Source: Pirellula sp. (GTDB taxonomy: Bacteria; Planctomycetota; Planctomycetia; Pirellulales; Pirellulaceae). Taken from it: a stretch of DNA of 64,000 bases. A model generated the notes under the pieces. It saw only the letters and a program-made list of their open reading frames with translations, was not told where the DNA came from and searched no databases. A program made the translations under genes and the position numbers. Within the stretch, counting starts at the first letter, position 1. Every line of letters starts with the position of its first letter. Shown here in pieces: positions 47,201-63,070 of this stretch. The DNA is taken from positions 33,608-97,607 of the forward strand of contig JANPHB010000209.1 of the NCBI GenBank assembly GCA_031424235.1. Reading direction: 5' to 3'.

Positions 47201-50200
47201 ATGAATCCATTCCCTAAGAAAATCGCCCTATCCGCCTCTGACTCTCCGTGGGCTTTTCGCCCTATGTGGGAGCAGTGTGAGCGTCGACTGGCATTGTCGG
47301 CAATGCCTTGGATGCCCTGGGATATCGGCCCACAGCAAGCGGTCGCTCCCACTATAGTCGACCTTCCCCAACCGGACGATCTCGTTTCGCATCCCTCGCA
47401 TTTGCAACCGATCGACACCAACGTAGCGCCAGCAATTGAACAGCATTTGGCAGAAGCTCATTCGCAATCCGGTTGGAACCAGGTCCACTCGCAATACGGC
47501 TTGACCGGCAAGGGGCAAACTGTTGCCGTGATCGATAGCGGCATTGCGTTTGATCACGTGGCCTTAGGCAAAGGCTATGGACCTGGCTACAAAGTCGTCG
47601 GCGGCTGGGACTTTGCCGAAAAAGACGCAAGACCCTACGACGATGCACCGGGCGGCTTCCACGGAACTCACGTTTCAGGAATCATCGGAGCCAATGATGG
47701 GACGCATTTGGGCGTCGCACCCGACGTCGACTTGGTCGCTCTACGTGTCTTTACCGATGCAGGCAAAGGGGACATGGGGTGGACTGAAAGTGCGCTCAAG
47801 TGGGTGCATGAGAATCGCAACAGTTTTGCCAATCCAATCACCACCGTCAATCTTTCGCTTGGCTCCGCTTGGAACTCGAACACGGTTCCATCCTGGGGAA
47901 CACTCGAAGATGAACTTGCTCAGTTGCAACGGGACGGCATTGTTGTGGTCGCGTCTGCTGGCAACTCGTTTCAACAATACAAAACGCCGGGCCTATCCTA
48001 CCCGGCCGCAAGCCCATACGTAATTCCCGTTTCGAGCGTCGATGCCAACGGACAACTCAGCGACTTCAGTCAACGCGATGCGCGATCGATTGCCGCTCCT
48101 GGTCGTTCGATAGAAAGCACCGTGCCTGACTATTTCTACGGCAAAGATGGAATCGCAAACGACTGGTCTACTGCGAGCGGCACGAGCATGGCGGCACCCT
48201 ACATCGCAGGCGCAAGCGTACTTGTCCGCGAAGCCATGGAAATGGTTGGGATGCAAAACATCTCCTCGCAATCGATCTACGAGCATCTCAAGTCGACAGC
48301 CAATTCCGTCTGGGATAGCGTCACCAAACAAAACTACCAATCGCTCGATTTGGATCGGGCCATCGAAAGCCTGCTCCCGGTCGATACCGTTGGTGACACG
48401 CTTGCAACGGGTATGAATTCCCAAATCCAAAGCACTTGGCAAACCGACGGTTGGATCAATTCACTCTCCGATCAAGATGTCTATCGGCTCACACCCAATC
48501 AAAGCGGCACTGTATCCGTACAGCTTGCGAGCGAATATGTAGACGATGCGGTATTCAAGCTTTTTCGGGGTGGCCAAGAGACAGCACTGCACGCCAGTCA
48601 AGGCAAATTGTCCTTTGCGGTTTCGGCCGGTGAAAACGTTGGTCTCAGCATAGCGGACCTCGACTCAATTGGCTCCTATCATTTGAATTGGAGCTTCGCG
48701 GCCAGTTCGAACAATGGAGGCGGAAGCGGTGGCGGTACGAACGGTGGTGGCGCTAACACCCTCATCCCAAGTAAAATTGTAGACCTTGGTTCGGTCGACT
48801 TGCTTGAGCAGACACTTAGCGGTTCATCTAGGTATAAGCTCACAGCAGAACACACCGGTATCATGAGTGTCGTGGTCGACGCTGGTACACAGACGACTGG
48901 TTCGCAGTCGACGGGCGCATTGCAGGTCTTTCGGCCAGGGATTGCCAATGGCACACTGTCCGACTCGCTTGTCGAAAACAACCAATGGCGGATCGATTTC
49001 AATGCGACACAGGGGCAAAGCGTTGAGTTCGTGCTACCTGGCACGGCCAGTCGAAACGTGCACTTGGTCAATTTGCTCCAGCAGCAAGGCACCGCATTGA
49101 CCATTTACGGGACCGACGCCGCAGACGCGGTCAAACTGGACCTGAGCAATGGCCTGGTAGCCAACGTCGCTGGGATTTCGTACCAACTTGATAACACAAT
49201 CAAAAGTGTCGTGGTCGATGCGAATCAAAACAATGACACGCTCACGCTGATTGGCTCCAAAAGGGCGGAGACAGTCGAATTGCGTCCGGGACTGACGACG
49301 TTCGAGAACACTCAACTGACAGTCCGAGCCACTGGCTTTGAGAATGTTCAATTTCAGGGCGGAGGTGGCCCCGATCGAGCTTATCTTTACGACGCGGCCA
49401 CCGATGATCGTTTGAGCATTTGGCCGAACAAGGCTGAGTTGACCGGTGTTGGGTATTCGTTCAAAGTTAGTCAAGTCGACCGTATTTTTGTGCATGCCAA
49501 TCAAGGTGGTGACGACCAAGCTTCTATGTTCGATTCGGTCGGCGATGACACATTGAGTGTGCGCCCGCAATTTTCTAGTTTGGCAGGGACCGGTTATTTC
49601 AATTACGTGGCCGGCTTCGAACGCGTCGTTGCTTACTCCAATGCTGGCGGAGTTGACCGCGCGGCGATCTACGATTCGGTTGGCAACGATCTCTTTAGCA
49701 CGAGCGGCGAAGTAACCTCGATTGTTGGTTCGGGGTTTTCCGCTTTCGCGCGTGGCTTTGAAAAGGTCGAAGCGTTCTCGAATGCGGGTGGAGTAGACCG
49801 GGCCAGCATCTATGCGCCAGTTGGCGGCAAATTGACGTCGGGGGCTGACTATGTTGGAATGCAAGACGCCACCCGATCTAGTATTGCGAGAAATTTCGAA
49901 CGGGTCGAAACCTTCCTTCCGGGGCAAACGGTCGCAACGCCTATTCGCTCAAATGCCTTAGGGACCTTGAGTGAAGATTCGGCACACTCGATTGAGCCGA
50001 TTGCTATTGATCCGATTGCTTCTGTGCCGATGGCAATGACGTCTACGGTGACGAACGTTTCTGCCAATAAATGCGAAGCGGTTTTTGATAAGATGGATTG
50101 GATTGCCAATCTTGTGGAAAAAGAAATCAGCCAACTGCGAGTCGGCCCCAATGAGGCCGCGATACTGGCGATCGATACGCAATCCGCTAATACGGACGGA

Positions 50201-50284
50201 AATGCGAATGGGCTCGATTTGACGTGGATCGATCGGGATTTGGAGCGAGCAGCTCTCGACGAAATTTTCGCAAAACACGCGTGA
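47201..50284 (+). CDS. Secreted S8 (subtilisin-like) serine protease with accessory domains and repeats
   Basis: Planctomycete-type leader 'EQCERRLALSA'; triad 'VIDSG', 'HGTHVSG', 'GTSMAAP'; oxyanion 'ASAGNS'. Confidence 0.92.
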   Translation: MNPFPKKIALSASDSPWAFRPMWEQCERRLALSAMPWMPWDIGPQQAVAPTIVDLPQPDDLVSHPSHLQPIDTNVAPAIEQHLAEAHSQSGWNQVHSQYGLTGKGQTVAVIDSGIAFDHVALGKGYGPGYKVVGGWDFAEKDARPYDDAPGGFHGTHVSGIIGANDGTHLGVAPDVDLVALRVFTDAGKGDMGWTESALKWVHENRNSFANPITTVNLSLGSAWNSNTVPSWGTLEDELAQLQRDGIVVVASAGNSFQQYKTPGLSYPAASPYVIPVSSVDANGQLSDFSQRDARSIAAPGRSIESTVPDYFYGKDGIANDWSTASGTSMAAPYIAGASVLVREAMEMVGMQNISSQSIYEHLKSTANSVWDSVTKQNYQSLDLDRAIESLLPVDTVGDTLATGMNSQIQSTWQTDGWINSLSDQDVYRLTPNQSGTVSVQLASEYVDDAVFKLFRGGQETALHASQGKLSFAVSAGENVGLSIADLDSIGSYHLNWSFAASSNNGGGSGGGTNGGGANTLIPSKIVDLGSVDLLEQTLSGSSRYKLTAEHTGIMSVVVDAGTQTTGSQSTGALQVFRPGIANGTLSDSLVENNQWRIDFNATQGQSVEFVLPGTASRNVHLVNLLQQQGTALTIYGTDAADAVKLDLSNGLVANVAGISYQLDNTIKSVVVDANQNNDTLTLIGSKRAETVELRPGLTTFENTQLTVRATGFENVQFQGGGGPDRAYLYDAATDDRLSIWPNKAELTGVGYSFKVSQVDRIFVHANQGGDDQASMFDSVGDDTLSVRPQFSSLAGTGYFNYVAGFERVVAYSNAGGVDRAAIYDSVGNDLFSTSGEVTSIVGSGFSAFARGFEKVEAFSNAGGVDRASIYAPVGGKLTSGADYVGMQDATRSSIARNFERVETFLPGQTVATPIRSNALGTLSEDSAHSIEPIAIDPIASVPMAMTSTVTNVSANKCEAVFDKMDWIANLVEKEISQLRVGPNEAAILAIDTQSANTDGNANGLDLTWIDRDLERAALDEIFAKHA

Positions 50285-50591: not shown

Positions 50592-53500
50592 ATGCTTCCA
50601 TTCGTGTCGGTGGGTTGTTCAGTGCAAATCGAAGACTACACTCTGGGTCGGCCGCTTACTAGCTCGGAACGCTTCCAAGAATACTACGCGACCAAGAGGG
50701 GCAAGCCTTTTCGGCTCATTCGATGGCTGAACCCGGAGTCGGGAACGGTTGAATGCGTAAATCGTGCGGTTCTCGTCTCCCACCAGAATGTCCTTTCGAT
50801 TTCAATCGTTGAGAACCACAGCGATGCCCTGATTACCTCCACCCCGTACGTTCATCAACAGCATTTTGATGTTCGACAGCCTAATGCCAATGAGCTACCG
50901 ATGATTCTGCTCAAGGTCGCACAAGCGCTCAGTGCATCGCATCAAATCGGGATCGCTCACGGCGCATTGCTTCCGTCGAAAGTCTATTGGACGGATTCCA
51001 GCTCGTTTGCTCCCGTTGCGACGAACACCAACGTGATGATCGATCTACTAGATGGCGAACTCTCCCGAGCATCTTTGGATGCTCGCATCGGTGCCTTCTC
51101 GCTTGCTGAGGATGTCTGTGCATTCGGGACGTTTCTGCAGACTATTTGTAACAGAACTCCTGCACTCATGAATTCGATAAGCCCTTTCCAATCGCTGATC
51201 GTGCGTATGGTGCATTCCGATTGGCTGGAACGCCCAACTATGGATGAAGTGGCTGACCGGTTGGCAGAGTCCATTCGTCCACCTACTTCTATTTCTTTCG
51301 TATCTTCGGGCGTATCCAATTCGAAACTCATCGGATCCGATTCTAGTTTTGAGGATTCTGCGAACGATGCGACTCAAGCAATTTCCGCAAACGAAGCTGA
51401 GTCGATAGCCAAAGAACGGATGGTTCCAGAGCACTTGCCGGAGATAGGTCGCTTTGTCATCGAACGCACGCTAGGCGAAGGGGGCATGGGAGCTGTCTAC
51501 CTAGGCCGAGATCGTGGTAGCGACGAACGGGTCGCCATCAAAGTCCTTTCCCAGCGGATGGCCAATGATGAAAAGGCGTCGCGTCGATTTGCTAAAGAAG
51601 CAAGATTGATGTCGACAGTCGACCACCCTGCGATCGCCCGGCTGATCGAATTCAATCGATCCGGAGATACCACTTATTTGGCCATGGAATACGTTCCGGG
51701 CGGCAGCCTCGCAGATTTCACGCGAACGCACCAAAAGCTAAACGAAACCTTGGTTGTTAGCGCTGTTGCGGACGCAGCTCGCGGTCTCAATGTCGCCCAC
51801 CAAATGGGAATGGTGCATCGCGATATCAAACCTGCCAATCTGCTACTGAGTGCCCGCGGCGAGCGTTCCTTTCAATCAGGCGAACTCGATCAGTCTGAAA
51901 GCGAGCCGTTGATCAAAGTCGCTGACTTCGGTTTGGCCAAGAACTTCGATCCCGCCGAGTCCATGGCGATGACTCAAACGGGCATGATCATGGGCACTCC
52001 CTATTACATGGCTCCCGAGCAATGCAGGGGAGAGGAGGTTGGACCGGCAACCGATGTGTATGCTCTCGGTATCACCCTGTTTCAATGCTTATCCGGTCGG
52101 CTTCCCTATCAAGGACAAACGCCGGTTGACATCTTTCGACTGCACTGTGATGCTCCCATCCCCAAGTTGCGATCCGTCGCTGAAACAGTCAGCGATGCAA
52201 TCCAAGAAGTTATCGAAAAATGTTTGGCCAAGAATCCTAATGCTCGTTACCAAAATGCGGGCGAGCTGTTTCAAGACTTAGAGGGATTGCTGACTGGTAC
52301 CAGGACGTCCATTCAATCGCACCCGGCCGTACCCACTCCAAACGCTGCGGGTATTCTCCGTTACCAATTCCAGTGGAAATTGCGTTCCTCAGCGGAATCG
52401 CTTTGGCCATATCTTTCGAACACAGATCGCGTCAATCAAGCCGTTGGCTTGCCCGCTGTTAAGTACAAGACCTTTCAAGATCCTAAGTTGGGAATGAGGC
52501 GAATCGCGACGGTGCGAGCGATGGGCATGACCATGGAGTGGGAGGAGCATCCCTTTGAATGGATCGAAGGTCGACGGCTGAGCGTACTGCGACAATTTCC
52601 CAGCGGTCCGTTTCACTGGTTTACCAACGTCGTTGAGCTCAACCCACAGTCGGACGGAGGAACACTCGTCGTTCAAACGTTGGAGATGATCCCACGCAAT
52701 TTCATGGGCAAGGTGTTTGCCAAATTTCAAATCGGCAATAAATCGGAACGCAACTTCGGACGCGTTTACGAAAAGATCGACGAGTACTTGCAATCCAACT
52801 CGAGCAAAAGTGTCGTCAATGCGTTTGCGGCGACCAAGCTAATGACTCGGGAACAGAAGCGTCGACTGACCGAACGTTTTGATCGAATTCGAGCCAGCAC
52901 TCAGGCCATCGATCCGAAAGTGGTTGATACGCTCGAACAATATCTCGAGTTCGCGAGCGATTTGGACGTTGCTCGATTACGCCCCATTGCGTTAGCGGAA
53001 CGCTTTGAGCTCAAGCCGGAGGAGGTCGTCGAAGTCTGTTTGCTGGCGGCTCGCGAGGGGGCCCTGATCTTGCTTTGGGATATCCTTTGTCCGACTTGTC
53101 GCATTCCATCTGACGTCAAAGAGACCCTCAAGGGACTTGCCGATCATGGTCATTGTGAAGCCTGCAACGCAGACTATGAACTCGATTTCGCAAAGAGTAT
53201 CGAACTGATCTTTCGGGCGCATCCGGAAATACGCGTATCCGAAACGCGAACGTATTGTGTTGGCGGTCCAGCCTTCTCGTCGCATGTCGCAGCGCAATTG
53301 AGGATTCAAGCGGACGAACGCCTCAACGTCCAGTTGCGAATGAGCGATGGGCAATATCGACTTCGGGGCCCTCAGCTGCCCTACGTCATCGATTTTCGGG
53401 TCGCCGCCAATGGGCGAGTCGGACGGTGGGATATCGATCTGGCTCGACCGGCCGCCAAACAGGATGTACCAACATTGCGAAGTGGCGAACAAGTCCTCTC

Positions 53501-54152
53501 GATTTTGAATTCGCTTTCGGATCCAAGACAGATACGCATTGAACGCTTGGCATCGCGGGCCGACGCGCTGACGGCAGCTGACGCAGCTCGACTTCCAGCC
53601 TTTCGGGAGTGGTTTCCCGACGAAGTGCTATCGCCGGGGCAAATGGTTAGCCTTACCACCGTAACGCTACTAGGTTGTCAGATCGCAAATGCGGTTCAGC
53701 TCTACGCGTCGCTTTCCGATCAGGCCGCTTGTGCGCAGATACTCAAGCATTTGCAAAGTATGGCAAGCATTGTCGCAAGCAACAGCGGTTGCGTGATCAA
53801 GACAATGAACGACGGCTTGAACACGGTCTTTCCGAGCACCAGCAATGCGGCTGCGGCAGCAACGCAGATAGCCAAGGCATCGGCTGAGTGGGGAGTCTCG
53901 ATTCGCCAGGCCATCCATCAAGGTTCCGCGATCGTAGCGACGATTAACGATCGCCTGGACTATTTTGGCGAGACACCGCAGTATTTGGAGGAATTGCTTC
54001 GCAGCTCGCAACCGAACGAACTTTGGATGTCGGATCAGAGCTGGAATGATTCGAGCGTGTCCTCAACTTTGCGAGTTGACTGGAATGTCCAAATGGAGCC
54101 GTCGTTATCGAACTGGCCGAAATGGAACATTGTGCGTGCACTTAAGAACTAG
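50592..54152 (+). CDS. Ser/Thr kinase fusion: pseudokinase + kinase + SRPBCC-like + DUF5939-like + degenerate class III cyclase
   Basis: Intact kinase 'GEGGMGAVY/VAIK/HRDIKPAN/DFG/GTPYYMAPE'; 'LSNTDRVNQAVGL...WEEHPFEW'; 'CPTC...HCEAC...YC.GGP'; cyclase-like 'VIKTMNDG...IHQG...LDYFG'. Confidence 0.88.
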   Translation: MLPFVSVGCSVQIEDYTLGRPLTSSERFQEYYATKRGKPFRLIRWLNPESGTVECVNRAVLVSHQNVLSISIVENHSDALITSTPYVHQQHFDVRQPNANELPMILLKVAQALSASHQIGIAHGALLPSKVYWTDSSSFAPVATNTNVMIDLLDGELSRASLDARIGAFSLAEDVCAFGTFLQTICNRTPALMNSISPFQSLIVRMVHSDWLERPTMDEVADRLAESIRPPTSISFVSSGVSNSKLIGSDSSFEDSANDATQAISANEAESIAKERMVPEHLPEIGRFVIERTLGEGGMGAVYLGRDRGSDERVAIKVLSQRMANDEKASRRFAKEARLMSTVDHPAIARLIEFNRSGDTTYLAMEYVPGGSLADFTRTHQKLNETLVVSAVADAARGLNVAHQMGMVHRDIKPANLLLSARGERSFQSGELDQSESEPLIKVADFGLAKNFDPAESMAMTQTGMIMGTPYYMAPEQCRGEEVGPATDVYALGITLFQCLSGRLPYQGQTPVDIFRLHCDAPIPKLRSVAETVSDAIQEVIEKCLAKNPNARYQNAGELFQDLEGLLTGTRTSIQSHPAVPTPNAAGILRYQFQWKLRSSAESLWPYLSNTDRVNQAVGLPAVKYKTFQDPKLGMRRIATVRAMGMTMEWEEHPFEWIEGRRLSVLRQFPSGPFHWFTNVVELNPQSDGGTLVVQTLEMIPRNFMGKVFAKFQIGNKSERNFGRVYEKIDEYLQSNSSKSVVNAFAATKLMTREQKRRLTERFDRIRASTQAIDPKVVDTLEQYLEFASDLDVARLRPIALAERFELKPEEVVEVCLLAAREGALILLWDILCPTCRIPSDVKETLKGLADHGHCEACNADYELDFAKSIELIFRAHPEIRVSETRTYCVGGPAFSSHVAAQLRIQADERLNVQLRMSDGQYRLRGPQLPYVIDFRVAANGRVGRWDIDLARPAAKQDVPTLRSGEQVLSILNSLSDPRQIRIERLASRADALTAADAARLPAFREWFPDEVLSPGQMVSLTTVTLLGCQIANAVQLYASLSDQAACAQILKHLQSMASIVASNSGCVIKTMNDGLNTVFPSTSNAAAAATQIAKASAEWGVSIRQAIHQGSAIVATINDRLDYFGETPQYLEELLRSSQPNELWMSDQSWNDSSVSSTLRVDWNVQMEPSLSNWPKWNIVRALKN

Positions 54153-54228: not shown

Positions 54229-54573
54229 TCAATTCAATCCCATGACACCGTTTAGGTCTTTTCCCACAACGAGTAATATTAGCGCAATGCTGACGAACGG
54301 CAAAAGAAGCGGTAGCGGCGCCAGCGAATAGCGGCGAAGAAAAAAGAGACTCCACGAACCAGCAATTGCCGCCATGCAGGCTAACGGAAGAGTCGCAAGC
54401 GAGCACAGCATCATTGCTGCCTTAGTGCGGAATTGCTGATTGGGATCTTGAACGATGCACACTGACACGATACCGAATAGCAATCCAGAAACGGACAAAA
54501 GAAGGACAACGCCATAGACCAGCGAAACAAGTCCGAGAAATACTTGATAAACTCGTAGAGATGTCAATTGCAT
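54229..54573 (-). CDS. Small 3-TM hypothetical protein
   Basis: 114 aa, three hydrophobic helices; tightly packed behind two same-strand ORFs. Confidence 0.6.
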   Translation of the reverse strand: MQLTSLRVYQVFLGLVSLVYGVVLLLSVSGLLFGIVSVCIVQDPNQQFRTKAAMMLCSLATLPLACMAAIAGSWSLFFLRRYSLAPLPLLLPFVSIALILLVVGKDLNGVMGLN

Positions 54574-54582
54574 CGCAAGTAC

Positions 54583-54960
54583 CTAGGTTGTAGTGGCATC
54601 GACATGCGCGTGCAAAATGTCAACATATAGACCTGTGCTCAGCGTACTATTTCCAGACACGATGCCTTCGACGTGGATTTTCGGATGGTCAGAAGCTGGT
54701 CCGATTACAAAAAACAGCCGACTACTCCGGGCATCGAGTCGATCGTGAGGCGAAAAAACAAGCCTAAGTCGATGGACGGTTCCTTCGATTGCCGCCACAA
54801 TCTGGAACCACTCATCGCGAGGTCGCCAATCTTGGAACTTCCATTTTTCCAAGGTAAGTGAAATCGGCCGGCTTTCGAGTTGACAGAGATCGCGTGTGAT
54901 CTCAATCGGTTTTCGGTCGCCATTGCAGAGCATGATTTCAATTTCGGCTGCCGTTAACAT
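54583..54960 (-). CDS. Hypothetical protein
   Basis: 125 aa; 9-15 bp spacing to its neighbours; GAAGAGAG before the ATG. Confidence 0.55.
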   Translation of the reverse strand: MLTAAEIEIMLCNGDRKPIEITRDLCQLESRPISLTLEKWKFQDWRPRDEWFQIVAAIEGTVHRLRLVFSPHDRLDARSSRLFFVIGPASDHPKIHVEGIVSGNSTLSTGLYVDILHAHVDATTT

Positions 54961-54975
54961 CTCTCTTCGCCGTTC

Positions 54976-55359
54976 TCAAATTTGATCAAAATACATACGC
55001 ACCATCAATTCACCATTCGAGCCATGAGTGTCTAGAGTCGTCCCTAGGTCCAACCATAGCCTTAGCTTGGTCGCACCCGGATCATCTAAGTTAACACCAA
55101 CCCAGGAATAGGTCCCTTGCAGTTCATGAGTTTGTCCGCTCGGCTCCTGCACGTTTAGTGTGAATTCAAATGCGACGCCGGTTCGTACCAAGATCGCCAT
55201 GTTCGGATCGTCGTTTCTGGGGCGTGCACCCGTTAGCCACTGTGGTTCGGATACTACCCGAAACGTCTCCAGTCGTGAACCAGGGACTTGTTGCTGGAGC
55301 ATCCGCTCAACCTCAGTTCGAATCTCGGCAAATGGTTCATCTGCAAGCCACTTAAGCAT
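54976..55359 (-). CDS. Hypothetical soluble protein; 5' end overlaps a MITE terminus
   Basis: Globular-looking sequence from 'DEPFAEIR'. The track's N-terminal residues are translated MITE/REP DNA. Confidence 0.65.
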   Translation of the reverse strand: MLKWLADEPFAEIRTEVERMLQQQVPGSRLETFRVVSEPQWLTGARPRNDDPNMAILVRTGVAFEFTLNVQEPSGQTHELQGTYSWVGVNLDDPGATKLRLWLDLGTTLDTHGSNGELMVRMYFDQI

Positions 55360-55471
55360 TTTCTCCTGCAAAAACAGGCTTTGTGTAGCGAAAGTCGTTA
55401 AGACTTTCGGCTGCATCGTCTAACGACCGAAACTCTTGACGAGTTTCGCTACATAATGCTTCAAAGTGTTG
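55344..55471. mobile_element. 128-bp inverted, partly degenerate copy of the 36283-36411 MITE-like element
   Basis: Its reverse complement aligns end to end with the 36.3 kb copy, including the GTAGCGAAACTCGTCAAGAGTTTCG doublet. No TSD is discernible. Confidence 0.8.
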
Positions 55472-55474
55472 TAA

Positions 55475-56845
55475 CTACAACGACTTAGCCACGGAAGTCC
55501 GATACGCTGCCAAGGCGGGAATAATTCCAGCCAAGATTCCGATTACGATCAGGCCGGGTACGATGAATAGTTCTTCGATCGAATTGATACTCAGGAAATT
55601 GATTCGCACCCCAGTCGCTTGCTCAGTCCAAGCGTTACTCAACGGGCCAACGGCGTGACCTGCAATCCAGCCAATGAAACCACCCACTACGGCAATCAAT
55701 ACGGACTCAACTAAGATGATGGCCGTGATATGATCGCGTGATGCCCCTAATGCTCGCATGACTGCGATATCCCGTTTGCGTTCGCTCATGCTATTGTAGA
55801 TCCCGACCAAGATACTGATTGCACTTACGATGCAAACCAAACTCGTGATCGCAAGGAGCGCCCATTTGATGGGCTTAACGAAAAAGTTCAGTAGGCCACT
55901 AATCACACCGATCGGCGAAACGGCTTGAGCAAACTTCGATTTGTTGACCTGTCTTTGCAGGCCAATCCCTTTCATCCCGTCCGTCTTGATCAAAATCGCA
56001 GTGACTTCTCTCTTCTCAATCGGCAAACGCACCTTCGACAATTTTGTATCACGCTCAGGAGCCGTGGCAGACCCTTTTTCTTCTCGGCCAGCCTCGTCGC
56101 GATTGGGAGCAACGTGCCCTTCTAGCAAGTAGAACCCCTCGATGTTGACAAACGCCCCGCGGTCGTTTGGCGTTCCTGTTGGTTCCAAGATGCCAACAAC
56201 AACAAATCCTTGATCGTGTTTAGCACCGCCGGCGGCTCCGTGCGAAGCAAAGATTTCACTCCCAAGTTCGAGCTTCATTTCGGCCGCGACTTGCGAACCA
56301 ACAACGGCTTCGAAGTAGCCATGCTCGTCCGAATAGTCTACGAAATTGCGACCTTTGGCGAATCGGTAGTCAAGGTCATTGTCATTGCCGTGCTTCAGCA
56401 AATTGAAGTAATCTGGCGTGGTACCAATACATCGAAACGTATCGATGTAGTCACCCATGCAAAGCGGAATCGCAAATCCGCCCTTGATAAGGAAAGAGTA
56501 CAAGCCGCTCCGTTCTGGTTCTTTCAATACTCCCCCGATCCGTTCGTATTCTTTCTGGCGGCCATCGTCCGCCATGTACTCCATGTAATAGGAGTATTGA
56601 ATGTTCTCCACGGGCTGACTCAAAAAAAAGACAGTGTTGAACGTCAATTGAATATCGCTGCCCTTAGCTCCAACGATCAAGTTGTAGCCCACATTGCTAG
56701 TACGGTCGAAGGTCCTTTGGATGACTCCCGATATCGTCAATACAAGTACTACGAGCGCAACCCCCAACGCCATCGATAGCATTGTTAGAGCAGTAGGCAG
56801 TTTGCGATAAGTAAGGTTGCGGACAGCAATGGTAAATAAGTTCAT
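55475..56845 (-). CDS. FtsX/MacB-like ABC permease (ZrgC-like)
   Basis: 'LIVGAKGSDIQL', 'SHG...KH', 'TGTPNDR', 'ERKRDIAVMRALGA'. Confidence 0.88.
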   Translation of the reverse strand: MNLFTIAVRNLTYRKLPTALTMLSMALGVALVVLVLTISGVIQRTFDRTSNVGYNLIVGAKGSDIQLTFNTVFFLSQPVENIQYSYYMEYMADDGRQKEYERIGGVLKEPERSGLYSFLIKGGFAIPLCMGDYIDTFRCIGTTPDYFNLLKHGNDNDLDYRFAKGRNFVDYSDEHGYFEAVVGSQVAAEMKLELGSEIFASHGAAGGAKHDQGFVVVGILEPTGTPNDRGAFVNIEGFYLLEGHVAPNRDEAGREEKGSATAPERDTKLSKVRLPIEKREVTAILIKTDGMKGIGLQRQVNKSKFAQAVSPIGVISGLLNFFVKPIKWALLAITSLVCIVSAISILVGIYNSMSERKRDIAVMRALGASRDHITAIILVESVLIAVVGGFIGWIAGHAVGPLSNAWTEQATGVRINFLSINSIEELFIVPGLIVIGILAGIIPALAAYRTSVAKSL

Positions 56846-56869
56846 CGTTCTGAATCGTTCTAAGTGTTA

Positions 56870-57559
56870 CTATTGTTCCGTGGTTGCGATTCGGTCGGCG
56901 AACGCACGATTGATTTGATCCAGCCGTTCCACACGTCCGAATTGATTTGCGATTTCGTCGCTGTGGGTGACCATCAAGATCGCGACAGATTCCTCGCGAC
57001 AAACATCCTTGATCAAATCGATGATGCGTTTTTGATTTGCAGGATCCACGTTGGCTGTCGGTTCGTCTGCGAGCAAAAGACGAGGCTTGTTAGCTAGTGC
57101 GCGAGCCACTGCCACACGTTGCTGTTGACCGACAGACAGTTGGCTTGGCAAGTAATGCATTCGGTCCGACAATCCAACTTTATTGAGCAACTCCTTGCCC
57201 CGCTCTGCGTTAATCTTTTTGCGAGCGAACGTCATTCCGAGTCGAACATTTTCCAGTGCGGTAAATGCGGGTAGCAAGTTAAAGGTCTGAAAAACGTAGC
57301 CCATCTTGTCCGCCCGAATGCGGTCTCGCCGCGACTCAGAAAATTGTGTCAGCTCCGTTCCGTCCAGACGGATTGAGCCGCTATCGGCGGACACGATTCC
57401 GGAGATGATGTGCAGAAGCGTCGTCTTACCACCGCCGCTTTCACCACGAAGCACGACCTGTTCTGCTTGGGCGATATCGAGTTGTGGAATATCGAGTATC
57501 AGCAGTTTGTTCCCACCAGGTTCTGCGTAGGATTTTTTTAAGTTTCGTATTTCTAGCAT
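56870..57559 (-). CDS. ABC transporter ATP-binding protein (LolD/ZrgB-like)
   Basis: Walker A 'GESGGGKTT', 'FQTFNLL', 'LSVGQQQRVAVARAL', 'ADEPT', 'VTH'. Confidence 0.95.
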   Translation of the reverse strand: MLEIRNLKKSYAEPGGNKLLILDIPQLDIAQAEQVVLRGESGGGKTTLLHIISGIVSADSGSIRLDGTELTQFSESRRDRIRADKMGYVFQTFNLLPAFTALENVRLGMTFARKKINAERGKELLNKVGLSDRMHYLPSQLSVGQQQRVAVARALANKPRLLLADEPTANVDPANQKRIIDLIKDVCREESVAILMVTHSDEIANQFGRVERLDQINRAFADRIATTEQ

Positions 57560-60654: not shown

Positions 60655-60727
60655 GGCCCCGTCGTCTAGAGGCCTAGGACATCGCCCTTTCACGGCGGTA
60701 ACACGGGTTCGACTCCCGTCGGGGTCA
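60655..60727 (+). tRNA. tRNA-Glu (TTC); CCA not encoded
   Basis: Acceptor GGCCCCG/CGGGGTC; anticodon stem TCGCC/GGCGG with loop CTTTCAC; T-arm GGTTCGACTCC. Confidence 0.96.
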
Positions 60728-61973
60728 TTACGTTTAGTTTCAGTAGCCATCCGGCACCATCAGAACCCTGCAATTTGCAGGGTTTTTTTGTTTCCTGATT
60801 TGCTGCGATGGTTCCCGAATCGCTATTGATGGGGGAACCGGTGGGGGGACGGAAAGCAATTGCCTTTTCGAAATGGGTGTCAGTCACTTGAAGGTAGTGC
60901 TTTTCAGCTACCTTTCCGGAATGCCCAAGCCACTTGTTTACAACGTGATCGGGAAACGCTTCTTGCAACTCCGTTCGCCGTGTGGATCGCAGATTTACGA
61001 AAAGTTTCGGCCATGATGTGAGCCCAGCCGATTCGACGATGCGAATGAACTGGGTTCGAAGGTTCATTTCCGAACCGCCTCGATAACGATTGATGCAATA
61101 AATTGCCCCCTTTGGCGCAAGCTCCCAAGCTTCATCTATTGCGAGTTTGATTTCAGGGAACAACGGCAGAAACCTTAAACCGGTTTTTGGTGAATCGATT
61201 CGTAGGCGATTCCCTCCCCAATCTACATCAGTCCATTTCAGCCCTAAAACTTCGCTTGGACAACGCAAACCCCCGAAACGTGTCAATGCGAAGATCAACC
61301 GCCAATCAGAATCAGGGCTCGCCTCTTTGATTTTGATCGAATCCGCGATCGAAACGAAGTGATGCCTTGCCGAGTTCGATTCGGATCCGCCTTTGATGTC
61401 TGCGAACGGGCTTTCGCCTAGCAAACGGTCCCTTACCGCATGTTGAAACATCGTTTTGGCTCGCTTGCAATGCTTCGAAACGGTTGCGACGGCCATCGGT
61501 CTAGCGGTCATCCAACGCTTCCACCGATCGCCGTCGGCTTGAGTCATCGATTGCAACGCGGTCTTCTCTCCAAAGTACTCGACCAATAGCCGGCGGGTCT
61601 GTTTGTAGTTGATGTCGGTTGTTGCCTTGATGTCACTACGGCCGGCAATGTACGAATCGAGAAACGGCCCAAGAAGCTTTCCTTCGTCGGTCGAGAGCTT
61701 TTGAGATATTGGACTGGCAAGCCCCCACGAAACCAAATTCTCTCTAAGCTTGCCGGTGGTTCCGTTCGCCCATGCTGTAGCATCAACCGCCGGGGAAACA
61801 TTGTTTGATTTCGCTTTGGAGAGCTCGTCACAATGCTGAGCAACTAGATTCGCCTGCCGTTCAGATTTCTTCGTTAGACCTGCAATGTAAAGCTCTCGCC
61901 GTCTCGAGTCGACGTAGAAACGAATTCGAAAGCCTTGCCGGCCATCTTGATCAAGCCTTGAAACACTTGCCAT
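60690..61973 (-). CDS. Tyrosine recombinase/integrase
   Basis: 'TRFGGLRCPSE', 'SPKTG', 'FVNLRSTR', 'WLGHS', 'KHYLQ'; N-terminal arm-binding-type region from 'MASVSRL'. The stop codon lies in the tRNA anticodon loop. Confidence 0.93.
   Translation of the reverse strand: MASVSRLDQDGRQGFRIRFYVDSRRRELYIAGLTKKSERQANLVAQHCDELSKAKSNNVSPAVDATAWANGTTGKLRENLVSWGLASPISQKLSTDEGKLLGPFLDSYIAGRSDIKATTDINYKQTRRLLVEYFGEKTALQSMTQADGDRWKRWMTARPMAVATVSKHCKRAKTMFQHAVRDRLLGESPFADIKGGSESNSARHHFVSIADSIKIKEASPDSDWRLIFALTRFGGLRCPSEVLGLKWTDVDWGGNRLRIDSPKTGLRFLPLFPEIKLAIDEAWELAPKGAIYCINRYRGGSEMNLRTQFIRIVESAGLTSWPKLFVNLRSTRRTELQEAFPDHVVNKWLGHSGKVAEKHYLQVTDTHFEKAIAFRPPTGSPINSDSGTIAANQETKKPCKLQGSDGAGWLLKLNVMTPTGVEPVLPP
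60764..60789 (+). terminator. Rho-independent terminator-like hairpin after the tRNA
   Basis: AACCCTGCAA-T-TTGCAGGGTT followed by a T-run. Confidence 0.7.
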
Positions 61974-62089
61974 GAAATCAACTCCTATCAAAGTTGCCCT
62001 ACCTGAAAAAGTGAAAAACCAAGGCAACCGCGATAGGTTCGGCTTTCGGGTTCGATGCCCTAGCCTTGGCTTTTTGTCGTCGTTGTTCG

Positions 62090-63070
62090 TTAGTTCGCTG
62101 TAGCGTTCAATTGGGAATCCAAGAACGCATCTAGTTGTTCGTTCTGCCATTCGTTGACCATGGCATCCATTATTCTGGCTTTTCCGTCTCCGGGTTCTGG
62201 CAACCGGTCGAATCGTTCGCAAGCGCCAGCAAGACGCATAGCGAGTAAGCCAAAGTCGCCTGCAGCGCCGATGTGTCCAGCTTGGATTCCCTTAATGCCG
62301 GCCCTGAGGATCGACACTAGGCCAGCTTTTGCAGTATCCGAATAGCACCGGCCTGTCGGCTTGGACTGAATCGTCGTATTGCTTGCCCCTCCATTCCACA
62401 ATCCGGATAGGAATTGTTCATGAATGGCATCGGCTTCACTGCCCTCGGAATCGCCGTAAGCGATGTCGAGAAGCCCTGAGGCCATCACGCCCAGTTCTTC
62501 CGGTGTTCCGAAACCGATTGGCGTCTCAGTCAGGATCGATTCAATGTGTGAAAGTAGAAGTTTGGTAACGTCCGGATTCAATTCACTCGTTGAAAGCCTT
62601 AGGTGATCGTCAACAAAAATGCTCAAGTCGCATGTTTGAGTGTCGGCATTTTCTGCGTCGCAGGCCTCCGCGCTTTCTATGTCATCGTCTCCGGTTTCCT
62701 CATCGTCTCCGATTTCGTCGTCGGCGGCCGGAAACCATCCCTCTGACCAAAGACTTTGACGGGATTCCAAAATCTCCTGCCAAGTCTCATCGTAAGCTCG
62801 GTGCAATTGCTCGTTCAATTTCGGATCCTTGAGGTCACCAGCAAAGCCGCGGCTAAATTGGTCCGACGGGTCCACGTGGTTGGCGAGCTCCTCTAAATGA
62901 GCGGCAAGTACTCCAAGCCCTGAGGAATCGCAAAGGTCCTCAGAATCGATCAACGCGATCGCATCATTGAGGAGACGTTTTACGACCGTTTTGGTTCCTG
63001 GGGAAAAAACGGTCTTGATTGGGCCTGGATTGCTATCGAAACCGGCGATTGATCGAACTACACTAGCCAT
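62090..63070 (-). CDS. Acidic hypothetical protein with apparent internal helical repeats
   Basis: GGAG RBS before Met 63070; D/E-rich linker; three similar 'G(L/F)G(V/L)(L/M)A'-type helical units. Confidence 0.7.
   Translation of the reverse strand: MASVVRSIAGFDSNPGPIKTVFSPGTKTVVKRLLNDAIALIDSEDLCDSSGLGVLAAHLEELANHVDPSDQFSRGFAGDLKDPKLNEQLHRAYDETWQEILESRQSLWSEGWFPAADDEIGDDEETGDDDIESAEACDAENADTQTCDLSIFVDDHLRLSTSELNPDVTKLLLSHIESILTETPIGFGTPEELGVMASGLLDIAYGDSEGSEADAIHEQFLSGLWNGGASNTTIQSKPTGRCYSDTAKAGLVSILRAGIKGIQAGHIGAAGDFGLLAMRLAGACERFDRLPEPGDGKARIMDAMVNEWQNEQLDAFLDSQLNATAN

Follow-up and report, generated by a model that had tools for sequence, protein, structure and literature searches.

In JAK (JH2-JH1), GCN2 and the plant tandem kinase proteins, one polypeptide carries a catalytically dead kinase domain and, directly C-terminal to it, a live one. 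Receptor guanylyl cyclases such as GC-A/NPR1 join a pseudokinase, the kinase-homology domain, to an active class III cyclase, the dead fold presumably regulating the other. The gene described here occupies positions 50592 to 54152 on the forward strand of a 64,000-nucleotide stretch of DNA from Pirellula sp. (contig JANPHB010000209.1; hereafter 'the window'), and encodes a protein of 1186 amino acids (aa). With moderate confidence we read its product as a soluble cytoplasmic sensor serine/threonine (Ser/Thr) kinase of a conserved Planctomycetota family, with the layout pseudokinase-kinase-SRPBCC-DUF5939-pseudocyclase and the mechanism proposed in the last section.

The live kinase domain resembles the PknB-type Hanks kinases, including PknB and PknA of Mycobacterium tuberculosis and StkP of Streptococcus pneumoniae. 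It is 30-34% identical to their catalytic domains, superimposes on PknB in Foldseek with a template modelling (TM) score of 0.93 and carries all of their motifs including the TQT activation loop, and by sequence it is a member of the Hanks kinase family. Unlike the PknB-type kinases, the window protein is predicted to be soluble, has neither transmembrane nor PASTA domains, and adds a pseudokinase at its N-terminus and, at its C-terminus, a module of SRPBCC, DUF5939 and cyclase fold. The likeness to GC-A/NPR1 lies in the presence of both folds on one chain, and GC-A cyclase domains are among the Foldseek matches; the logic is however mirrored, since here the cyclase is predicted to be dead and the kinase live. 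The window protein in addition has an extra dead kinase and no membrane receptor part, and the relationship is one of analogy without orthology. The same holds for JAK, GCN2 and the plant tandem kinases: the weak PDB matches of the N-domain profile include GCN2 and the pseudokinase of PAN3, but the window domains are bacterial and PknB-like, the N-domain lacks an activation segment and the origin appears to be independent.

In sequence and in structure, the C-terminal domain is matched best by the cyclase Ma1120 of M. avium and the cyclase domain of M. tuberculosis Rv1900c/LipJ. Both keep the metal Asp pair and have cyclase activity, whereas the window domain has Gln, Gln and Glu at three of the six catalytic positions. 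The TOMM system kinase/cyclase fusion protein (TIGR03903) is likewise a bacterial fusion of a kinase and a cyclase domain; membership of that family was rejected on a score of 134 bits against a cut-off of 705.75, contributed by the kinase part only. Kinase folds with degraded catalytic motifs are known from bacteria, and a 2025 review of bacterial Ser/Thr pseudokinases distinguishes seven families, ActPs1-3, GLW, CP1, DYD and DLHK, to which the N-domain is alike in this respect (PMC12599244). That review mentions neither Planctomycetes, cyclase domains nor tandem arrangements (PMC12599244). Judging from the review's coverage, the family of the N-domain appears to be undescribed. Nothing relevant on planctomycete kinase/cyclase fusions was found in the literature searched.

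Domain architecture and catalytic residues

The gene is one uninterrupted frame with five domains, which are joined and followed by shorter segments. All features lie on the forward strand.

50592..54152, +, whole ORF (open reading frame): 1186 aa plus stop
50622..51287, +, N-terminal pseudokinase domain, aa 11-232 (profile-profile match, PDB profile matches, AlphaFold2 (AF2) model, motif table)
51288..51446, +, linker, aa 233-285 (predicted disordered)
51447..52289, +, Hanks-type (PknB-like) Ser/Thr kinase domain, aa 286-566 (Pfam, PDB match, Foldseek, motifs)
52356..52796, +, probable SRPBCC/helix-grip domain, aa 589-735 (AF2 pattern, PF10604 matches in relatives)
52848..53561, +, DUF5939 region, aa 753-990 (PF19363; a five-helix segment, then a beta-rich part)
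53604..54071, +, degenerate (by its catalytic residues) class III cyclase-homology domain, aa 1005-1160 (Foldseek, profiles, catalytic columns)
54072..54149, +, C-terminal tail, aa 1161-1186 (two beta strands predicted by AF2; less conserved than the domains)

Only the second kinase domain has a complete catalytic apparatus, as far as its motifs tell. Pfam Pkinase (PF00069) matches aa 289-554 with an E-value of 1.8e-57 (195.2 bits against a gathering threshold of 31.7), and the best match in the PDB is PknB (E 1e-48). The glycine-rich GxGxxG loop (GEGGMG 295), the VAIK Lys (314), the alphaC Glu (KEARL 335), the HRD Asp and catalytic-loop Asn (HRDIKPAN 409), the DFG Asp (445), the TQT activation loop (460) and the APE motif (474) are all in place. 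An insert of about 25 aa separates the catalytic loop from the DFG motif.

The N-terminal domain has no Pfam match when taken in isolation, and its kinase ancestry is visible at the level of profiles. An alignment of eight N-domain sequences matched the family's own kinase-domain alignment over both lobes with a probability of 97-98% (hhalign, E 1e-11 to 1e-13), and the same profile, used as a hidden Markov model (HMM), matched 367 kinases in the PDB with a best E-value of 5.7e-6. The relative set behind this alignment, P0121 to P0127, is small: a word-indexed protein search with the N-domain returned only P0121, one started from its alignment added no more than P0127, and it took an exhaustive HMMER search to recover P0122 to P0127. 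In the AF2 model the secondary structure of the domain is that of a bilobal kinase-like fold, and the predicted local distance difference test (pLDDT) score is 67-93 by block. The Foldseek matches of a model covering aa 1-580 are dominated by the true kinase and say nothing about the N-domain fold separately.

For a kinase fold to count as a pseudokinase, the loss of any one of three residues is enough, namely the beta3 Lys, the HRD Asp or the DFG Asp, and the N-domain lacks all of them. TSSERF (aa 23-28) occupies the position of the glycine loop, and beta3 reads RLIRW in place of VAIKV (FRLIRW, aa 40-45), the Lys being gone and its place taken, according to the alignment used, by Arg or by Ile. 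The catalytic loop is HGALLPSK (aa 123-130) where HRDIKPAN would be expected, IDLLDG (aa 150-155) stands at the DFG position, and the activation segment is shortened or deleted and without APE. The domain at aa 11-232 is thus, by its residues, a kinase fold without the essential catalytic machinery, and loss of phosphotransfer is predicted. The linker that follows has a pLDDT below 50 for residues 236-276. This disordered and fast-evolving stretch ends in a conserved segment right before the kinase (aa 258-285, 51363-51446; NDATQ..(I/L)P....E...AKE.MVP..(M/L)P.IGRF), which could be a regulatory or docking element.

Downstream of the kinase, the probable SRPBCC domain carries an invariant WEEHPFEWIEGRR motif and is predicted with a pLDDT of about 95 as a beta-alpha-alpha-beta6-long alpha pattern, the helix-grip. 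Polyketide_cyc2 (PF10604) does not match the window protein itself, but it matches nine of 20 aligned family members, with a best E-value of 3e-8; a sequence-profile search of the PDB with the domain gave no match. The DUF5939 region scores 57 bits against PF19363 (cut-off 22.5), the match covering only positions 11-125 of the 281 in the profile, and is modelled with a pLDDT of 87-98. In the family alignment WDILCPxCR (829-836), HCEAC (854-858), C889 and H898 are invariant; C833, C836, C855 and C858 form a CxxC...CxxC motif, and with C889 and H898 they make up a putative Zn-binding site. For DUF5939 neither a PDB sequence homologue by profile search nor a paper in the literature searched was found. 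The AF2 model of aa 575-1186 has a pLDDT of 93.4 and a predicted TM score (pTM) of 0.88, which suggests that the three C-terminal domains would form one compact, rigid unit. The top 50 Foldseek matches of this C-terminal model are all cyclases, and no structural neighbour of the SRPBCC or DUF5939 domains is among them.

The last domain belongs to the class III cyclase fold even though Pfam Guanylate_cyc (PF00211) scores only 16.3 bits on the window protein, below the gathering threshold of 21.9. A family profile of the domain finds Ma1120 at E 3e-23 and Rv1900c at E 9e-13, the window domain alone finds Rv1900c at E 0.0013, and Foldseek superimposes it on the Rv1900c cyclase domain with TM scores of 0.80-0.86 and a root-mean-square deviation of 2.6-3.1 Å. 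Three of the six catalytic residues of a class III cyclase are present, judged from MAFFT and HMM alignments. The substrate (adenine-specifying) Lys and Asp, K1070 and D1123, and the second metal Asp, D1074, are kept; the first metal Asp is lost (Q1030), as are the transition-state Asn (Q1130) and Arg (E1134), the latter with reversal of charge. The G-[FS]-T motif after the first Asp, part of the phosphate-binding beta1-alpha1 region, reads N-A-V.

The domain anatomy given in an initial annotation, which was made from the DNA sequence and its translations, is borne out by these data. It had proposed an N-terminal kinase-like domain without glycine loop and VAIK Lys and with HGALLPSK for HRDxKPxN, a second kinase with all motifs, an SRPBCC-like and a Cys-rich DUF5939-like domain, and a cyclase fold that lacks the first metal Asp and the N..AAR motif and retains KTMND and DYFG.

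Family distribution and selective constraint

A protein search with aa 565-1186 returned 178 relatives, which the database calls 'protein kinase' or 'class 3 adenylate cyclase'. When genomes, one for each species, were scanned with the DUF5939 alignment, 537 loci were detected; the 80 best-scoring ones were used for composition and motifs. Genomic ORFs were taken as stop-to-stop frames, so that their lengths are upper bounds, and the taxon labels of metagenome-assembled genomes (MAGs) are those deposited. Nearly all of the best 80 loci are labelled Planctomycetota. They include many Pirellula sp. MAGs at 85-89% identity, which puts the source of the window near Pirellula, as well as Gemmataceae, Isosphaeraceae, the complete genome of Tundrisphaera lichenicola, and Fuerstiella. 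At about 62 of these 80 loci the open frame continues upstream of the kinase by more than 200 aa, a stretch recognised by the HMM of the N-domain, by that of the kinase or by both, and intact ORFs of the same layout are present in at least 17 Pirellula-clade genomes. The HRD Asp is absent from 62/62 N-domains (HG., AG. or VG. in its place) and the DFG Asp is absent too. The N-domains of Gemmataceae and Isosphaeraceae still have the GxGxxG loop and APE, both of which are lost in the Pirellula clade. Together, the dead N-domains and the clade-specific losses indicate that the tandem of dead and live kinase is old and widespread in Planctomycetota, the window copy being its most degenerate form.

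Some individual loci merit comment. One locus labelled 'uncultured Chitinophaga sp.' (L042) carries a typical planctomycete family member and is probably a mis-binned contig, and three more typical planctomycete members (L028-L030) are found under the label 'Candidatus Kuenenia'. Two contigs of one Pirellula MAG (JAYTVM01, isolate GFS_5689; L011 and L016) each hold a full five-domain copy, and therefore some genomes would have at least two paralogues. The active kinase matches its profile in two pieces in L045 (476-627 and 744-888 of a 1498-aa ORF), and is split likewise in L064 (294-441 and 485-629), which points to a large insertion inside the kinase domain.

The catalytic columns of the cyclase-fold domain were counted in the 113 closest protein relatives and in 76 genome loci. 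The canonical set D-K-D-D-N-R is found in none of either (0/113 and 0/76), and the 30 relatives without a detected kinase domain, several of which are fragments, have two to five of the six residues. The closest approach is P0033 with D-K-E-D-N-R, which is the only complete set among the 113 provided that Glu is allowed to stand for Asp at metal site 2, and which would be the family's best candidate for residual cyclase activity. The substrate Lys is kept in 95/113 proteins and 73/76 loci and the substrate Asp in 105/113 and 76/76, whereas the first metal Asp, Asn and Arg positions vary freely across the family; the Pirellula clade shares the state Q-K-D-D-Q-E. Among true cyclases the Lys and Asp positions change with the substrate. 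Because this pair is variable among real cyclases and near-invariant here, a retained base-binding pocket in the cyclase-fold domain is suggested.

Ratios of nonsynonymous to synonymous substitution rates (dN/dS) were obtained against L002, a 91% identical ortholog (dS about 1.2), and as medians over 12 unsaturated Pirellula ortholog pairs, since dS is saturated for more distant pairs; the single value for the N-domain is against L001, a syntenic relative on a fragmentary contig (dS 0.71).

N-domain: 0.23 (against L001), median 0.34
Linker: 0.13, median 0.24
Kinase domain: 0.050, median 0.069
SRPBCC domain: 0.016, median 0.056
DUF5939 region: 0.043, median 0.060
Cyclase-fold domain: 0.038, median 0.063
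Tail: 0.16, median 0.15

Purifying selection acts with equal strength on the dead cyclase and on the live kinase, and the former is kept rather than decaying; the whole C-terminal module, dead cyclase included, is strongly constrained, and no other domain is as conserved as SRPBCC. The pseudokinase evolves several-fold (about fivefold) faster, yet it stays open and recognisable and keeps its invariant residues. Its identity to the full-length ortholog P0125 is 31%, compared with 76% for the kinase, 85% for SRPBCC and 72% for the cyclase-fold domain.

The initial annotation had asked whether the catalytic losses recur in orthologs under purifying selection, which the shared Q-K-D-D-Q-E state and the cyclase dN/dS values show to be the case; the neutral evolution of the flanking domains that would have spoken against it is not seen. 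Its background assumption, of an active cyclase as the usual recipient of signals from SRPBCC/DUF5939 modules, finds no support among the relatives sampled, those without a detected kinase domain included. The idea built upon it, that the output was rewired from cyclic nucleotide synthesis to phosphorylation, stands in part: the cyclase-fold domain appears repurposed and not decaying, but a recent rewiring from an active cyclase is unsupported. Because no sampled relative has the canonical cyclase set, any rewiring would be ancient and family-wide, with no special event in the window protein.

Gene start and genomic neighbourhood

The ATG at 50592 that opens the frame is not conserved in L001, where Thr-Leu stands in its place, and the GTG at codon 11 (50622) is conserved there and is the called start. 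The true start is therefore probably the GTG at 50622. No transmembrane segment was found in the 1186-aa protein, which is most likely soluble and cytoplasmic; a membrane receptor was rejected on the same ground. There is no paralogue of the gene elsewhere in the window, and scans for promoters and terminators and against Rfam found nothing at the ORF.

No gene neighbours are conserved. The flanking genes vary among relatives, and a function derived from an operon was rejected for that reason. Upstream lies a 1027-aa subtilase (Peptidase_S8, E 1e-38; 47201-50284, +) with a long C-terminal region that looks internally repetitive to the eye. A subtilase gene also precedes the ortholog fragment in L001, and the pair is syntenic in close relatives only. 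Downstream, three small ORFs without Pfam match (54229-55416, -) separate the kinase gene from the genes for a 456-aa permease of the MacB/FtsX type and a 229-aa ABC ATPase at 55475-57559 (-). Further along are a transfer RNA (tRNA) gene (60655-60727, +, 57 bits) and, about 1.3 kb from it, a match to the int-alpA small RNA that is barely above threshold (62002-62070, -; 36.7 against 35.8 bits). A 510-aa ORF (60690-62222, -) overlaps this region, which could be an integrase or mobile-element insertion at the tRNA.

Proposed mechanism, alternatives and significance

The SRPBCC fold typically forms a ligand pocket, the domains of class III cyclases are obligate dimers arranged head to tail, and activation of PknB-like kinases proceeds through dimerisation and through trans-autophosphorylation of their TQT loop. 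In the mechanism that we favour, a signal would be received by the SRPBCC pocket and/or the putative Zn-Cys site of DUF5939; SRPBCC, the most conserved domain, is together with DUF5939 the likely input. The cyclase-fold domain would supply a dimer of the class III head-to-tail type, and may bind an adenine nucleotide without turnover by means of its family-invariant Lys/Asp pair. Since class III domains dimerise and PknB-like kinases respond to dimerisation, this dimer could bring two kinase domains together and so allow trans-autophosphorylation of the TQT activation loop. The fast-evolving pseudokinase on its disordered linker may exert allosteric control over the kinase or offer a docking surface to partners, as in other tandem pseudokinase-kinase proteins.

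Several observations weigh against this picture. The G-[FS]-T motif is absent across the whole family and the position of the catalytic Arg is Glu or Asp in most Pirellula-clade members, which together argue against canonical triphosphate binding, and the conserved Lys/Asp pair could be structural. The AF2 model of pseudokinase and kinase (aa 1-580) has a pTM of 0.61 and a disordered linker, and it does not fix the arrangement of the two domains. In L001 a stop codon falls within the linker, 23 nucleotides from the contig end and probably as an artefact of that end. This stop codon, and an N-domain identity of 23-47% among orthologs whose other domains are 60-90% identical, would favour the view that the flanking domains are decaying remnants or that the N-domain lies outside the same polypeptide. 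We consider that view very improbable: the N-domain has a dN/dS of 0.23-0.34 and the cyclase domain one of 0.04-0.06, none of the at least 17 Pirellula-clade orthologs has a stop, and in L002 and L004 the frame runs without interruption from the N-domain into the kinase. On the dN/dS values and the intact orthologs, decay into a pseudogene was rejected.

The C-terminal module might, alternatively, be only a scaffold or a platform for substrate recruitment that senses no small molecule, its Lys/Asp pair and cysteines being purely structural. The degenerate phosphate-binding loop and the compact, rigid assembly predicted for the module agree with this, as does the fact that no ligand is known for DUF5939, a domain for which neither paper nor PDB homologue was found. 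Such a scaffold would leave unexplained why a Lys/Asp pair that varies among true cyclases of differing substrate is near-invariant here, and why a fold that is typically a ligand pocket is the most constrained domain of all; we give it a small but real chance. A further proposal is that the cyclase-fold domain is still enzymatic, as a non-canonical cyclase or another nucleotidyl transferase acting through D1074 and the substituted residues, which would make the protein bifunctional. It can draw on the retention of K1070, D1074 and D1123, the strong purifying selection, the conservation of Q1030 and Q1130 in Pirellula-clade members with domain identities as low as about 52%, and the near-complete set of P0033. 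It has to contend, however, with the loss of one metal ligand, of both transition-state residues and of G-[FS]-T, with the charge reversal at the Arg position, and with free variation in the family at the three lost positions, which would be unexpected if catalysis were maintained, and we judge it improbable.

The favoured reading as a sensor kinase can be taken further, as a tentative and rather doubtful proposal. The family may be an independently evolved bacterial counterpart both of the JAK-like tandem of pseudokinase and kinase and of a receptor guanylyl cyclase in mirror image, where a dimer of dead class III cyclase domains would act as an adenine-nucleotide- or ligand-gated switch on a live kinase, with the Zn-Cys DUF5939 domain and SRPBCC as the sensor.

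By its sequence distribution the window protein is no singular oddity but a member of a widespread and uncharacterised planctomycete family, one that is large and conserved and, in the sample analysed, nearly all labelled Planctomycetota. Two different enzyme folds appear to have become non-catalytic components that flank a single live kinase, and the tandem of pseudokinase and kinase would be a bacterial example of that arrangement. The database label 'class 3 adenylate cyclase' is probably wrong as a functional statement. With its invariant Cys/His motif the family offers a good entry point to DUF5939, and it is a clean test case for the role of a dead class III cyclase domain kept by selection, be it as dimeriser, nucleotide sensor or otherwise.

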